A stretch of 27,703 bases of DNA from Nanobdellati archaeon (GCA_013152815.1 JAADFO010000053.1:1-27703); one strand, 5' to 3'. Shown: positions 12,001 to 18,000, numbered from the stretch's first letter. Program-made: the numbers.

Positions 12001-15000
12001 CCGGCAGGATCAGCGATGCCAAGACGTCGTTGTATGGCCTGGACGGTGAGGTTCATCTGAGCAGGAGGTATTGTGGTGTTGCCCATCTGTTCCTGCACAA
12101 AATCGTCCAGAGGATGGTCAGAAGAGAGCAAGCCCAGAAGAGAAGAGACAGGATAGCTTTTCCTGTCTATCTGGACATCCCCTATTGTCGAGAAGGCATC
12201 GGTGGAGAACAGGAACAGCTTGTAGGAATCGCCCTTCAGCGATGCAAGGTCGCGGTCATCAAGATCCTGCTGCATAGGGATCAAGTCAGGGCCGGTGAAG
12301 AACGTCACCCGGTCCAGGTCAGGAGAGGCCAGCTCCATTCCGGCAAGAAGCCGGCCATCCTTCTCAAGGAGAAAGGTGTTCTTGCCTACGGCCATCTGCT
12401 CCCTGAACTCCCGGGCATCGAGGAAGAGAAAGACGCCGCCCGCCAGAGTGATAATGAAGAGAAGGGTCGACAGCCAGAAGAGGACCCTGCCCAGACGAGG
12501 GAAGAAGTGATGGAGCAGCCAGAGCAGGACCATGAACAGGACAGACCAGAGTATCATCTCAACGAGCATACATTTCCCAAGAGAAGGATGTATTTAAGGA
12601 TTTTGGGAAAGAGCGGGCATAAGATTTATATGTTTACGCAGATTAACTTTTTTGAGAAGTGCTCATTTTCAAAGATGGTAAACAAGAGTTTAGATACAGC
12701 AATAGAAGAATATGTCCCCCGGTCGGTCAGGATACAGGAACCCATACGAAAACTGGAGACGTTAAGAGAGATGGGCTTCAGGGGCCTTGACGATCTCATC
12801 GACCTCATAGCAAAGGAACACATACAGTTCCCCATCCTGACCAACGCCCATTACGCGTCGCTTCTCGACAAGGATGATCCAGAGGACCCTCTCCGCAAGA
12901 TCGTCATCCCCACAGAAGAAGAGATCCTCAGATATGTGAGAAGGCAGGGGCAGTTCGATACGAGCGGAGAACGCACCAACACCCAGGCGCCGGGGCTGCA
13001 GCACAAGTACGCGCCCACGGCCATAGCCCTGGTCAATGCGCTCTGCGCGTCCTACTGCCGGTTCTGTTTCAGGAAACGCATCTTCATGGGCGATGAAGAA
13101 TTCTATAGCACAGGACGTTTCCCCAACAAGGAGGCCATCCGCTACCTCCAGGACCACAGGGAGATCAATACCCTGCTCCTGACCGGCGGAGACGCCTTCA
13201 TGCTCGACAACGACACCGTGAGGTCATTGACCGGGATACTCAGCGACCCGAGCCTGGACCATATTCGCACCGTCCGGTTCGGCACCAGGATGGTGGTCTA
13301 CCAGCCGCAACGTATCGATGATGAGCTGGGCCAGATCCTGCAGGACTTCAGGGACACCACCGGAAAACGGGTCATGGTCGGCACCCACGTCAACCACCCC
13401 AGGGAAGTCACACCAGAGACAAAAGATGCCTTCGAGCACCTTCTCGACCACAAGATTGCATTGTACAACCAGACCGTCCTGCTCAAGGGCATCAACGACG
13501 ACCCCGCAGTCCTCTACGAACTCTTCGACAAGAAGCTCGCGTTCAACGACAACAGACCTTATTATCTCTTCCATGACCGTCCGGTAAGCGGTTCAGAGCA
13601 CATGCAGGTCCGTCTCGACGACGGACTCCACATCTACAGCGAGGTCGCCAAGAGGATGACCGGTCCCCACAAACCGAGATATGTCATGTCCACCAAAGGA
13701 GGGAAGATGGAGATCGACAGCATGCACCCGACGAAACCGAACGTCATCATCCTCAAATATCATTCAGCCAAGGACATGTCCCTGACCGGAAAGGCCGTCT
13801 TCTACGACCTCAGGGAGAACAACCCGTTCTGGTACGAACCGACAGTGGCTTGAACAAAGAACAGGACAAAGGCAACAGGCAGGTGAACAGATGCTCAGAC
13901 CGGCAAAGAGGCTCATCACAGGACTGATGGACAAGGCAGGCATCGAACTCGGCAGGGACATGACGGTCCACGACGAATCGTTCTACAGGGATGTGCTCCT
14001 CAGGGGTTCTCTTGGGCTGGGGGAAAGCTATGTCAAAGGAAAATGGGATGCTGAAAAGCTCGATGACCTCATCACCAGGATGCTCCGGGCCGAACTGGAG
14101 GACCGGTTCTGGCTCGGGACCGTCGTCGGCCTGAACAGCCTCTTCTCCTCGCTCCTGACGAACCGGCAACAGGAAAGCAGGAACGAAGAGGTGGCAGACA
14201 AGCACTACAACATGGGCAACTTCCTGTTCCATTCCTTCCTTGACAAGAACAGGCAGTATTCCTGCGCCTATTTCAAGAAGGCAGACACCCTGGATGAGGC
14301 CCAGGTGGACAAGATGAAGCTCATAGCAGGAAAGCTCGACCTCAAAGAAGGAGAGCATCTTCTGGACATAGGATGTGGCTGGGGAGGCCTTGCGAATTTC
14401 CTGGCAGAGCAGTATGGTGTCCGGGTGAAAGGCATCTCCAATTCACAGGAACAGGTCTTGTTTGCGAAAACCCATGCCCATGAAGGGACAACGTTCGAGA
14501 AGAAGGACTACCGTTCCCTTGAAGGCAGCTATGACAAGATCCTATCCGTCGGCATGTTCGAGCATGTGGGCCCCAAGAACCACAGGACCTTCATGAGAAA
14601 GGTCGACGACCTGCTCAAGGAAGGAGGCATCTTCCTGCTCCACACCATAGGAGGCCACAGGTCGGTGAACCATACCGATCCCTGGTTCGACAGGGAGATC
14701 TTCCCCAACGGGGTCATCCCGTCGAAGAGGCAGATCAGGAAGGCATCGGAAGGCATCTTTGAGGTCAGAGATATCGAGGAGTTCGGCCCCTACTATGACA
14801 AGACATTGATGGCCTGGTACGACAATCTCAAGGCAGCCTGGAACAGCATCAAGGGAAAGTTCAAGGATCCTGACCGTTTCTTCAGGGTCATGGAATACTA
14901 TCTCCTGAGCAGTGCCGGAACGTTCCGCTCAGGCCAGAATACCGTGTGGCAGTATGTCTTTGCCAGGCCCGGAGAACAAGGGGGATATGCAGCATACAGG

Positions 15001-18000
15001 CTTCCCTGAACAACAGCAGCGAAAGGGATGCAGCACCAATATCCATATAAATTTCTCTGCATTTGCTCATCCCATGGCACGGAGCAGAGCAGGGAAAGCG
15101 AAAGACATCCTTCTTCTCCTGGGAGCTTTGGGTGCAGGGACAGGCGTATCAGGATACATGACGCCAAACGAACCACCACAGGCAGGGCAGGCAACCGTCC
15201 TGCAGCAGGATGATCTCGCTTCCAGGGTCGCTGTCATCAAGGAATTCGTGAAGTCAGAAGGCACCTATTCCTCCACCACCATCAACGGGAAAGAGATAGA
15301 CATCTATGCATTCGACAGATTCAAGGGATACACTCTTCAGGCAGGGGATGATTTCCTGGCCATCTTCAAGAAGGACAAGGAAGACCGCTTCGCCATCATC
15401 GACTATGCAGGCTATGGGTCAGGCGATTACTTCGTCAGGCTGAAGAAGTACCCCGGCGTCTTCGTCACCATCGATGTGATCAGCAAGGTGGAAGAGATGA
15501 GAGACGCCAGGAAGACGAGGGCGACCTCTTCAGCAGGCAGCTATGAACGGGTACAGGGAGCGAAGGATCAGGACAACGTCCAAAGGGTCTACAGCAGCAC
15601 CATAGCGGATCTCGAGAAGCTCATGGCCGTCGGAGAGTGAGGGACACACAGGCAGTTTTATACGCATATACGCACTTTGCCGACGCTATGAAATGTGAAG
15701 ATTGGCGCTGTTCATATACAGGCGATGTGAGGCACGTTCTTTCTTTGTCATCTCTTTAAGCGAGGTATCCCGGCCCATGGCTTTTTCAACAAACTGATCG
15801 ATATGTTCTTTTGGAGGTATCTCAGAAAAATAGACCAGATTACCTGCTCCAAGGGGAACATCCCAGAGACGGTGCCTGAAGATGGGCGTCGTCAGACCAT
15901 CCCTATTCTCACCCCACTTTGAGATGACCAATCCATCTTCCTGAACATAGCCTGCATGGCTGAGCAGAAGGTCGTGATAGTGCTGCTCAGAATCATAGTG
16001 TTTCACCTGTATGAAATACCAGACAACACCCCCCTTCCCCGGTTTAACATCCTCAGAGACGGTCAGACTTTCTACGAGCGCGTCCACGCCTTTAATGAGA
16101 TCAGGACCCTCTTTCCCCAGAACATGGTTGAAACAATTATGATAACGTAACGCTTCAGGATGATCTGCAGCAGGCTCAATGCCCATCTTGGCCATCCGTT
16201 CTTCGACAGTTGACCGTTCCCCCCGATTGTATCCCAGAGTGATCTGTAGACGACGGATGTATTGATCCAGATTCTTGAAAAAGGATTGTGTGTTATCCAT
16301 GATTGCCTGCTGTTGGTCGCTCTCAATAAGGGAGAGATGAGATTCGGAAACAAACCATCACAAAACCATCTCACATATTCAGAACACAACCTCTCTTTAA
16401 AAAAGTTACTATCAGAGAGTGATATTTTTCCTTGTTTTCAGGATTGCGACTTTGGCAAAGAAACTAGCCCCTCCTGGAATAGCGGAAGATAGCCTCATTC
16501 TTTGGAGCTCGAGAAGTTACCTTAGTCTTTTTTTGATATGTTCAACCAGTGGTTCAAACAACGCCTGTGATATGGCGAGGGCATTTTCAGCTTCTTCTGG
16601 TCTGGGTTTATATCCGTAGTAGTTAATGTTGTGTCTCAGTCTCCTCATGTTATCGAGGATGCTTAGCGGTCGGGTAGTGTTCACTTTTAAGGTAAGTAGC
16701 TCCTTGATGGGCGTTATATGGTCTTCTGATTCGATGCCTTTCTCTGTCAGCAACGCATCTCCAAGCATCCTGAAGGATTCGTAGATATTGCGGATGATGG
16801 TTGCAGAAGATTCTTCTGTGACTGGCAGGGAAAGGGTGAACTTCATATCCCGTTCAGCAGCCTGAAGAATGCTCAGTGCATTTTTCCGGTCTGGTCTTTT
16901 ATACCTCATGGTCTGACCTCCAAGAACCCCTCAAGCACTATGCCGTTTGCAATATTTGAGAATAAATTTATGTCTATCTTGTTGCGTGTGAATATGTGTA
17001 GATTAACAGGAACATCTTTTCTATATCCGAACCTGGGCATCCTGCCCATCTCGATTATTCTCACATCTTTATCGCTATTCACTTCAACTGCTATGTCAAC
17101 ATCACTTTTTTCTGTATCATCCCCTTTTCGGTAGCTTCCGAAAAGCACTATCGCGTTTGCGATGCCCACGATCTCCTGTATTTGGTTTTTTAGACTCTTG
17201 TTGTAAGCTTCAAACACCATCGATAGGTTGAACGCAATTTTTTTTGTGTAATTGTAAGGATGACTCCGGTTGCACGCAATCCGCCAAGCTTTGCCATACA
17301 CTTTTTTTATTAAGAATTCTTCTTCAACCATCCTTTCTACAATCTTCTTTGCAGTCGTTTTTGATATCTTGAGATACTCAGCAAGATCATTTAATCCCGC
17401 TTCCGTCTCGGGAAAAGAGAAAAACCAGGAGAGCACCTTATTATAGGCTTCATTTAGTTCAACCAGTCCAACATTTTCCAATCTCTTCGGCATATGAGCT
17501 GGTAACGAGAAGAACTATATAAACTTTTTGGTTACCAATCGGTAATTATGAGAACCAGATGAGTTTTTTTAGAACCGGTTTATGAGAGTTAAAAGAAATA
17601 ATGCAAACATAGAGCTCCCGACAGCATCATCACTAACAGGTGAACTCTAGCCCCGCCCGGATTCGAGACTATGAAATTCTCCTCAGGAAAGGTTTATAAA
17701 GAGTATTTGTCTAAAACTAAAGGGGATCATTGCCAGCCAATGAACCATTTGAAATTGGCCTGGGCTCAGGCGGAAGAGAATATGGATCGTTCTCATAACC
17801 ATGATTAAAGGGGGAAATGTTTAAGACTTTACCATCCACCACCAAAGTACTGCTCCCTCCCGGATCAAAGCCCATTGCATGAACCATGCCGTGTTTTAGG
17901 AGTATCCTTGCCATGTCCCTATGTGTGGCGCCGACTGACTCTCTAATACGCCCATTAACCACTAAGACTGAAAGATCTCCTTTTTTATCCAAGCCAACGG

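Follow-up and report, generated by a model that had tools for sequence, protein, structure and literature searches.

The window analyzed here is the whole stretch of 27,703 nucleotides of contig C53 (GCA_013152815.1 JAADFO010000053.1:1-27703). It belongs to a Woesearchaeota-type genome of 76 contigs that is 90.8% complete with 0.74% contamination. The features considered are listed below.

9370..9708, + strand: Pth2, archaeal peptidyl-tRNA hydrolase, archaeal marker of the contig (TIGR00283, 139 bits, cut-off 82)
9784..10128, + strand: eIF-1A, archaeal initiation factor, archaeal marker of the contig (NF003084, 116 bits, cut-off 91)
10748..11275, - strand: LspA, bacterial signal peptidase II (TIGR00077, 114 bits, cut-off 74; PF01252, 111.5 bits)
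12675..13853, + strand: KamA-family radical SAM protein (TIGR00238, 196.5 bits, cut-off 199.2)
13891..15009, + strand: cfa, cyclopropane-fatty-acyl-phospholipid (CFA) synthase of the E. coli type with N-terminal domain, 372 amino acids (NF008686, 6BQC)
24715..25461, + strand: Bud32, KEOPS kinase, archaeal marker (TIGR03724, 194 bits, cut-off 125)
25482..25754, + strand: L35ae ribosomal protein, archaeal marker (NF003326, 97 bits, cut-off 85)

Pth2, eIF-1A, Bud32 and L35ae confirmed that the contig bearing cfa is archaeal. The real start of Bud32 is probably located downstream of the annotated position 24715.

The product of cfa matched the NF008686 equivalog with 442.4 bits (cut-off 400) over profile positions 17-381 of 383 and the E. 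coli CFA synthase (PDB 6BQC) with E 2e-92, residues 8-364 being aligned to 20-378. A separate alignment with E. coli Cfa gave 167 identities among 362 positions (46%). As the alignment begins at residue 8, the N-terminal lipid-binding domain is present ahead of the SAM domain; mycolic-acid methyltransferases matched only from about residue 100. The description of the gene as a full-length CFA synthase in the genome-wide survey's note thus stands. Seven of the nine checked positions were identical in both proteins: Y137, C139, G236, E239, H266, I268 and Y317 of the E. coli enzyme align with Y123, C125, G221, E224, H251, I253 and Y302, while C354 is replaced by S341 and V171 by Leu. E239, H266 and Y317 are bicarbonate ligands in E. 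coli Cfa. Unlike its E. coli counterpart, the predicted archaeal enzyme is encoded in a genome without detected fatty-acid synthesis.

The GC3 of cfa (0.73) agrees with that of pth2, eIF-1A and EF-2 of the same genome (0.70-0.76), and a recent transfer or contaminant was rejected on this ground. The intact gene, its retained active-site residues and the host-like GC3 suggest long retention. The cfa branch is divergent, its closest relatives being at most 52% identical, and the gene was found in only 19 of the 201 genomes of the order. A single origin was narrowly rejected (p-AU 0.035, three long-branch rows left out), so cfa was probably gained more than once. The KamA-family gene lies 37 bases upstream on the same strand; it was dismissed as a partner of cfa, such adjacency being absent from the 18 other cfa loci with scanned neighbours. 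In relatives, an FAD oxidoreductase adjoins cfa, and family searches gave it no specific name.

The survey found nothing in print on this subject, which proved mistaken. CFA synthesis genes were reported in five Woesearchaeota MAGs (Zhang et al. 2024, PMC10936187), and Woesearchaeia were proposed to modify the lipids of bacterial hosts (PMC11868695), so that gene, lineage and interpretation in the accessible parts of these papers are all as here. The same parts contain no lineage-wide cfa count or tree and draw neither on Lgt, LspA and Lit nor on the disappearance of AliA. PMC9530719 does not mention cyclopropane, and our literature search found no lipid or host data on Woesearchaeota. Neither cfa in Woesearchaeota nor the idea of bacterial-host lipids is therefore new; taken alone, cfa is weak evidence for bacterial-type lipids and represents an accessory piece.

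Several genes listed by the survey in support of its reading did not keep their assignments. The two presumed halves of a lysyl-phosphatidylglycerol synthase matched LPG_synthase_C and LPG_synthase_TM as claimed, but lie unlinked on different contigs. The former (C4:3110-3937) stands alone and has no NCBIfam match. The latter (C18:7443-8429) is a TIGR00374 flippase-like domain within a sugar/glycosyltransferase cluster, and PF03706 matched all four control archaea; the idea of MprF in two parts was hence abandoned, this domain being common in archaea. The phospholipase D protein does contain two PLDc_2 stretches, but its NCBIfam matches are confined to NucT, DrmC and DpdK (E 1e-5); a cardiolipin synthase was rejected for lack of Cls family support, and by these family matches the protein looks nuclease-like, although it may still act as a phospholipase. 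A motif search (not a profile search) for the GDSL lipase gave no match.

The strongest evidence for bacterial-type lipids is not cfa but the bacterial lipoprotein pathway. Profile matches bore out the presence of Lgt, LspA and Lit noted earlier. Apart from lspA in the window, the genes are located as follows.

Contig C4 11706-12461, - strand: Lgt (TIGR00544, 171 bits, cut-off 118.9)
Contig C24 10235-10882, + strand: Lit (PF07314, 101 bits, cut-off 24; Lit fold)

The LspA translation shows both catalytic aspartate motifs of the enzyme. The six essential residues of Lgt (Y26, H103, R143, N146, G154 and R239; PMC13251419) are all retained as Y21, H99, R139, N142, G150 and R212 and are present in 46-47 of 47 archaeal rows. 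The residues of B. cereus Lit are H85, V89, F149, H153, F157 and W162, the H85/H153 dyad serving the attack on the sn-2 ester carbonyl (PMC8275575). Across 24 aligned rows their equivalents H80, V84, F150, H154, F158 and W163 are conserved to at least 90% or without exception, the dyad residues H80 and H154 being invariant in all 24. The archaeal Lit shares about 20% identity with its B. cereus counterpart and scores below curated cut-offs (NF051877, 37 vs 400; TIGR01906, 72.5 vs 74.8), and its predicted model superposes on B. cereus Lit with Z 22.9 and rmsd 2.2 over 208 residues. A lipobox was detected on 19 ORFs of the genome, of which about 17 look convincing on visual inspection. The set resembles the Firmicute lyso-form pathway (B. 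cereus Lit, PDB 7B0O/7B0P; E. coli Lgt, 5AZB) in having the three genes, the Lit fold and the catalytic dyad, and here too no Lnt was found, with a single E. coli sequence as a query that is less sensitive than a profile. It differs in that its genes belong to the core of an archaeal clade and are not linked, and in that no PgsA was found in this genome to provide the donor lipid for Lgt.

Of the 201 genomes of the order, 188 contain Lgt and 162 contain Lit, and LspA was present in 201 of 221 genomes of the phylum; none of the three gave a match in any of the four control archaea. Hundreds of genomes, single-contig ones among them, bear the trio. The closest named Lgt homologues are nearly all from Woesearchaeota or Nanoarchaeota, and in quick EF-2 trees all Lgt-positive rows fall into one clade (SH-aLRT 100). 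The Lgt trees themselves were poorly resolved, so no donor can be named. A single clade of 27 archaeal rows was not rejected (p-AU 0.595) after the order's rows had been thinned by about half and eight divergent or doubtfully labelled rows dropped, one divergent archaeal row being removed after inspection of the first tree. Not every member of the clade has the trait, since Lgt and Lit are missing from family f138 (5/5), which also lacks LspA and AliA, and from two named Pacearchaeota.

In archaea, lipoprotein lipidation was attributed to AliA/AliB (Hong et al. 2025, PMC12462473), and papers of 2025 and 2026 state that Lgt is absent from archaea (PMC12462473, in its accessible part, and PMC13251419). 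The accessible part of the former shares with our data the abundant lipobox proteins of Woesearchaeota, at 12-60 per genome in seven genomes, and the part of its preprint available calls the lipidation pathway of such genomes 'yet-to-be-discovered'. AliA, recognized as DUF63 from those alignments of that paper's supplement that were accessible, was found in four of the 221 genomes of the phylum, all four without Lgt, LspA and Lit. Neither this genome (G000) nor any of the 200 Lgt-positive genomes tested contains it. In contrast to the AliA/AliB system, AliA is missing here and Lgt-LspA-Lit is present instead. We propose that the trio goes far back in the Woesearchaeota/Pacearchaeota clade, where it took the place of archaeal AliA, and that cfa was a later, patchy acquisition.

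The survey's statement that no ether-lipid core enzymes are present was upheld in part. Profile searches of this 90.8% complete genome found neither PcrB nor UbiA, and E. coli GldA as a query for G1PDH, a weak test, gave no match; the set of G1PDH, GGGPS and DGGGPS was not recovered. In the 201 genomes of the order, GGGP synthase had four matches, one of them full-length and on a 2-kb contig, so it is essentially absent from the order. Against the statement, contig C59 has a CarS-family gene (PF01864, 99 bits, cut-off 22; NF003114, 128 bits, cut-off 148; 5GUF, E 5.6e-11) 63 bases downstream of pssA, and CarS occurs in 97 of the 201 genomes. Characterised CarS has a strong preference for DGGGP over phosphatidic acid, and an E. 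coli cdsA mutant is not complemented by it. PssA did pass the bacterial TIGR00473 model (127.6 bits, cut-off 107), but scored higher on the archaetidylserine synthase model NF038087 (134.6 bits, cut-off 240), and TIGR00473 matched three control archaea. The Psd profile was matched as claimed, but archaeal controls match it too, and E. coli Psd accepts archaeal substrates. Both were therefore rejected as marks of bacterial lipids. A trans-prenyltransferase and a mevalonate cluster are present, and a geranylgeranyl-reductase-family gene falls just below the cut-off. The adjoining pssA and carS and the presence of psd resemble the archaeal CarS-Ass-Asd pathway (A. pernix CarS, 5GUF), from which this genome differs in that no GGGPS or DGGGPS was found to supply DGGGP, and some relatives in that CarS is clustered with PlsC-family acyltransferases.

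The lack of acyltransferases reported by the survey was corroborated by a PF01553 profile search and by E. coli single-sequence queries, less sensitive than profiles, for PlsX, PlsB and the C-terminal half of PlsY; queries of the latter kind also found no GpsA, ACP, FabF, DgkA or true FadD. An aas/FadD-like match on C70 was discarded as an acetyl-CoA synthetase and a FabH-like match on C5 as an HMG-CoA synthase. Some relatives appear able to make phosphatidic acid themselves. PF01553 acyltransferases were found in 97 of the 201 genomes; two of them are clustered with gpsA in five hand-picked relatives, and in G195 acyltransferases, gpsA and lgt form one run adjoining archaeal uS2. In G038, G050 and G009, the cluster that contains CarS also includes acyltransferases together with PgsA-like or MGDG-synthase genes. 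Over the whole sample CarS and PF01553 co-occur at chance level (48/97, p 0.78), and an enrichment of 27/39 (nominal p 0.004) depends on a post hoc threshold and related genomes. In G084 and G259, two Lgt-positive genomes that each consist of a single contig, CarS, CdsA and CDP-alcohol transferases are all missing; gene content thus cannot fix the lipid proportions.

Altogether, the gene content suggests that the membrane probably holds bacterial-type fatty-acyl ester lipids obtained externally. The earlier reading of a scavenged fatty-acyl membrane survives mostly through the lineage pattern of Lgt, LspA and Lit, since of the survey's own list CFA synthase alone is left. In the proposed model the ether-lipid core route has been lost, and bacterial-type diacyl glycerophospholipids would be taken up and then tailored. 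Because acyltransferases, GpsA, fatty-acid synthesis and PgsA were not found, ready-made phosphatidic acid and phosphatidylglycerol would be imported from bacterial cells, vesicles or lysate. The retained archaeal CarS may replace CdsA, activating phosphatidic acid with CTP, and the neighbouring PssA together with Psd would yield phosphatidylserine and phosphatidylethanolamine. Given the genes and residues described above, Lgt would transfer diacylglyceryl from phosphatidylglycerol to lipobox cysteines, LspA would cleave the signal peptide, and Lit would move the acyl chain at sn-2 onto the free amine, giving lyso-form lipoproteins. Finally, CFA synthase would put a SAM-derived methylene across the cis double bonds of bilayer acyl chains. 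A bacterial host is plausible, and ester lipids could also come from lysed cells or vesicles; for a bacterial host specifically, we put the case at slightly short of even.

The pssA-carS pair also fits the archaeal head-group pathway, and, given the preference of characterised CarS for DGGGP, its retention in 97 of 201 genomes counts against ester lipids. We therefore considered that the membrane may consist of ether lipid supplied by an archaeal host. In that case CarS, PssA and Psd would rework unsaturated archaetidic acid, Lgt would act on archaetidylglycerol, the Lit-fold protein would have another job, and the CFA enzyme would methylenate an isoprenoid or other substrate. The best PssA score on the archaeal model, the promiscuity of Psd and the geranylgeranyl-reductase-family gene agree with such a scheme, and Lgt chemistry on an ether lipid may be possible in principle. 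Nevertheless, it requires three bacterial enzymes to switch substrate independently with unchanged active sites, and leaves unexplained both the loss of archaeol-using AliA alongside the presence of Lgt and LspA and the gpsA-acyltransferase clusters of relatives. Ether lipids also lack the sn-2 carbonyl that Lit targets, which favours ester lipids, and we consider the archaeal-host scheme unlikely.

It is likewise improbable, in our judgement, that ester lipids form a minor lipoprotein-anchor pool in a mixed or ether bulk membrane, with cfa as a dispensable transferred gene. The patchy cfa with its narrowly rejected single origin, and the composition of G084 and G259, would suit such a pool, but the intact, host-like cfa with its active-site residues would not, and a lipid auxotroph presumably uses the lipids of its source, a separate bulk ether pool calling for a second one. 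Mis-binned or chimeric contigs as the origin of the bacterial-looking genes are hardly credible. The bin is split into many contigs, and the scanned part of C4 with lgt contains no archaeal marker. Yet cfa and lspA share C53 with four archaeal markers, the contamination is low, and the nearest named Lgt homologues are nearly all archaeal as described; the recurrence of the trio across the order nearly settles the matter.

The preferred reading of externally obtained ester lipids can be extended, tentatively and with rather more doubt than confidence, to the ancestor of Woesearchaeota, Pacearchaeota and allied orders. This ancestor may have lost the ether core and AliA and gained bacterial Lgt, LspA and Lit, its lineage living on bacterial hosts ever since, with a membrane made mainly of fatty-acyl ester lipids. 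Some descendants would have rebuilt a hybrid pathway, with bacterial GpsA and acyltransferases feeding an archaeal CarS turned CDP-diacylglycerol synthase. The exchange of AliA for Lgt-LspA-Lit across the lineage opens the question of ester lipids to tests without culture. If ester lipids are indeed present, a large archaeal clade crosses the lipid divide in nature, and bacteria belong among the host candidates. If the switch was ancestral, it would represent a natural change from an archaeal to a bacterial-lipid membrane, such as has been put forward for eukaryogenesis, and the domain of the host could be predicted from whether a genome has Lgt or AliA.

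The CFA synthase gene (cfa) of the window is a real, native gene of this archaeal genome. It lies directly downstream of a gene for a radical SAM enzyme:

12675-13853, immediately 5' of cfa: KamA-family radical SAM enzyme, under every specific aminomutase cut-off
13891-15009, + strand: cfa, 372 aa, CFA synthase equivalog (442 bits vs the cut-off of 400)

As the genome-wide survey's note had claimed, the product is full-length, exceeding the equivalog cut-off and aligning to E. coli CFA synthase over residues 8 to 364 (E 2e-92). E. coli Y137, C139, G236, E239, H266, I268, and Y317 are conserved, and the position of C354 is occupied by Ser. 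The contig (C53), which the window covers entirely, bears Pth2, eIF-1A, Bud32, L35ae, and LspA alongside cfa and belongs to a 1.49-Mb bin (completeness 90.8%, contamination 0.74%). The GC3 of cfa was 0.73, as compared with 0.70–0.76 for the host genes and 0.40–0.45 for a low-GC stretch further along the contig. Judging from the closest homologues of its Lgt, those with names being almost all Ca. Woesearchaeota or Nanoarchaeota, and from EF-2, which clustered with one named Woesearchaeota locus in a quick tree, the organism is of the Woesearchaeota type.

The low-GC stretch (16000-25000; 0.39–0.46 vs about 0.53) is probably a more recent acquisition. It encodes a 1383-aa glycosyltransferase-like protein, weakly matching mannosylglucosylglycerate synthase, and a GT4. 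Small two-gene pairs at 4728-5382, 16517-17493, and 23987-24663 looked by eye toxin–antitoxin-like or nucleotidyltransferase–HEPN-like.

Among 201 genomes of the order, each at least 75% complete, cfa was found in 19 at E 1e-40, with 16 exceeding the cut-off; the closest relatives of the window protein share at most 52% identity. A single clade of 18 archaeal CFA rows vs 10 named bacterial rows was narrowly rejected after three long branches had been dropped (p-AU 0.035). In one relative cfa sits immediately 3' of lspA (L014, G124:C15:7638-11747). In five others a conserved FAD_binding_4 oxidoreductase of ~445 aa adjoins cfa (loci L010, L011, L012, L013, and L016 of genomes G052, G078, G108, G170, and G107, respectively); no such gene was found in the genome studied here. 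We take this pair to resemble the bacterial BfaA/BfaB, for mid-chain methyl-branched fatty acids. Altogether, cfa is an accessory gene already reported for Woesearchaeota: Zhang et al. 2024 (PMC10936187) list CFA genes in five Woesearchaeota MAGs, a commentary (PMC11481508) restates this, and PMC11868695 proposes that Woesearchaeia modify the lipids of a bacterial host. The survey's impression that nothing was in print did not hold.

Its other lipid genes told less about bacterial lipids than had been assumed. The supposed halves of MprF are unlinked, the C-domain protein standing alone on contig C4, and the TM protein, on C18, carrying a TIGR00374 flippase-like domain amid glycosyltransferases, epimerases, and a DegT aminotransferase. 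The two-HKD phospholipase D, described as cardiolipin-synthase-like, matched nuclease-type families only. The pssA and psd genes are present as stated; as a sign of bacterial lipid they fail, since TIGR00473 and Psd also register in three of four control archaea. PssA scored higher on an archaetidylserine synthase model, if below the cut-off of that model, than on TIGR00473. According to PMC9385802, the substrates that E. coli Psd accepts include archaeal ones. The claim that ether-lipid core enzymes are missing stood for GGGPS and UbiA (profile searches of the genome detected neither these nor PlsC-family genes), but it overlooked a CarS-family gene directly 3' of pssA. Searches of the genome with single E. 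coli sequences did not find PlsX, PlsB, GpsA, ACP, FabF, Lnt, DgkA, GldA, or FadD. The genome is without PgsA because PssA is its sole CDP-alcohol transferase.

A stronger signal than cfa and the rest of this list is the Lgt–LspA–Lit lipoprotein pathway. Lgt passes TIGR00544 and retains the six essential residues listed in PMC13251419, which are conserved in 46–47 of 47 archaeal rows. Lgt of monoderms, for its part, does not rescue E. coli. Lit is below the strict NCBIfam cut-offs; over 208 residues its model (pLDDT 97.5) superimposes on B. cereus Lit with an rmsd of 2.2, and Z is 22.9 for this match as compared with 8.9 for the next unrelated fold. The 24 top-scoring Lit rows all have H80, V84, H154, and F158, and nearly all have F150 and W163; these correspond to the published His85, Val89, His153, Phe157, Phe149, and Trp162 (PMC8275575). 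From these residues and the modeled Lit fold, both enzymes look active. A lipobox pattern scan gave 19 ORFs, about 17 of them convincing by eye; control patterns with other residues gave 3–21 matches, and the count alone is therefore no clean test. The lgt contig also carries a squalene/phytoene synthase-family gene (L087:1935-3032) and a HAD phosphatase of the YqeG type that matches a PGP-phosphatase family in Pfam (L087:5126-5704). Beside lit, on contig C24 (L089:8253-12839), lie genes for a cytidylyltransferase-like protein, a PfkB kinase, a nucleotidyltransferase, and a GT9 heptosyltransferase-family protein, a set resembling the bacterial heptose pathway, here in an archaeon.

The pathway is widespread in the lineage. 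Lgt was detected in 188/201 order genomes (149/156 of the high-quality ones) and Lit in 162; of the four PcrB/GGGPS matches, three were short and partial, and the only full-length one lay on a 2-kb contig. In the phylum sample of 221 genomes, Lgt was present in 200 and LspA in 201, with both in 192, one only in 17, and neither in 12 (one unlisted Lgt-negative genome being assumed to be G334). DUF63, identified as the AliA family from the supplement alignments of Hong et al., occurred in four genomes, all within these 12. Outside the order, Lit was found in 10/19 genomes positive for Lgt or LspA; it was found in 0/12 genomes lacking both enzymes and in none of five named Lgt-negative archaea. 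Among 37 genomes reached via named loci, Lgt was present in 19/20 labelled bacteria and 3/17 archaea, these three being Woesearchaeota or Nanoarchaeota; in this set it was not found in two Pacearchaeota, Iainarchaeum, one Aenigmatarchaeota, and one Micrarchaeota genome. One labelled bacterium without Lgt (locus L152) is possibly mislabelled or mixed; its EF-2 match looks archaeal (44% over 8-741). The order tallies, including those for cfa and the lipid genes, take in the unpublished genomes G110, G129, G178, and G200, and the set of 37 takes in G368; these were left out of the trees, and no claim depends on them alone. In the quick EF-2 tree a single clade (SH-aLRT 100) takes in all Lgt-positive rows and excludes family f134 and the AliA-positive genomes. 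The AliA distribution in the supplements of Hong et al. agrees with this pattern as far as 60 of their 67 DPANN rows go: AliA is absent in 24/25 Pacearchaeota and 7/7 Woesearchaeota; it occurs in N. equitans, Nanobsidianus, 7/7 Aenigmarchaeota, 3/3 Nanohaloarchaea, and 9/11 Micrarchaeota. Their seven Woesearchaeota have 12–60 predicted lipoproteins.

Hong et al. 2025 write that Lgt and Lsp homologues have not been identified in archaea, their preprint left a pathway "yet-to-be-discovered", and PMC13251419, based on RefSeq genomes, gave Lgt as absent from archaea. Neither "lipid" nor "lgt" occurs in the main text of a preprint from 2026 that covers 208 complete Nanobdellota genomes, though the genes may appear in its supplements; the excerpts of PMC13631571 make no mention of DPANN, and those of 10.1101/2025.11.11.687807 lack "lipoprotein". 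We found no report of the trio in DPANN in the literature outside subscription papers and supplementary tables (e.g., Castelle 2021). NCBI already names these archaeal proteins Lgt.

Lipid-synthesis clusters of relatives could indicate the origin of ester lipid. CarS and PlsC-family acyltransferases each occur in 97/201 order genomes, the latter in none of the family of the genome studied here. No association of CarS with PF01553 was seen over the whole sample (48/97, p 0.78); an overlap of 27/39 appeared at a threshold picked afterwards. The neighbors at the 27 scanned CarS loci (of 30) included CDP-alcohol transferase (15 loci), Psd (3), DUF212 (5), and PHP (7) proteins. DUF212 (divergent PAP2) and PHP-domain proteins recur by CarS and CDP-alcohol transferases (loci L237–L266) and may be phosphatases or hydrolases of lipids that await characterisation. 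Among eight hand-picked clusters (8/9), two acyltransferases adjoin gpsA in genomes G195, G102, G023, G015, and G117, with lgt in the same run, adjoining archaeal uS2, in G195, and a fatty-acid desaturase and RadA in G015; in G038, G050, and G009, CarS lies together with acyltransferase genes plus genes of PgsA-like or MGDG-synthase type. CarS had no match in G195 and G117, and therefore another CTP transferase may serve there. In G102, G023, and G117 (L331, L332, and L334), acyl-CoA dehydrogenase and ETF genes share the run with the acyltransferases and gpsA and may supply acyl chains via a CoA-based route. In earlier studies, Castelle et al. 2021 (PMC8204110) note G3P dehydrogenase, PMC6431249 reports PlsC/PlsY for DPANN and, for Woesearchaeota, GpsA, and PMC8421398 describes a subgroup J without GGGPS and DGGGPS.

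Most likely, the membrane contains scavenged diacyl ester lipids, whose head groups would be reworked by CarS–PssA–Psd and whose acyl chains would be cyclopropanated by Cfa, with Lgt–LspA–Lit anchoring lipoproteins. The presence of the genes, the retained residues, the fold, and the distribution are what we observed; from them we infer the substrates, the lipid source, and the proportions. The main point against this reading comes from CarS, for which the characterised enzyme shows a preference for DGGGP and fails to complement cdsA (PMC9385802), together with the mevalonate, prenyltransferase, and GGR-family genes of the genome. An ether membrane with repurposed enzymes, to which these observations lend weight, seems unlikely to us: in the published Lit mechanism (PMC8275575), the freed amine attacks the diacylglyceryl sn-2 carbonyl, which archaeol lacks. 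We consider it slightly less probable still that ester lipid forms only a minor pool.

A bacterial host for the lineage as such, raised as a question for DPANN by Castelle et al., is a possibility that we hold tentatively, with rather less confidence than scavenged ester lipid. Family f138 (G208, G234, G254, G313, and G333) is without Lgt, LspA, Lit, and AliA and falls inside the Lgt clade on EF-2, where four of five rows cluster with one named Pacearchaeota and G234 stands apart. The absence of these genes is best read, from the tree, as loss, and this Pacearchaeota-like family offers a natural control when host and lipid type are compared between lineages.
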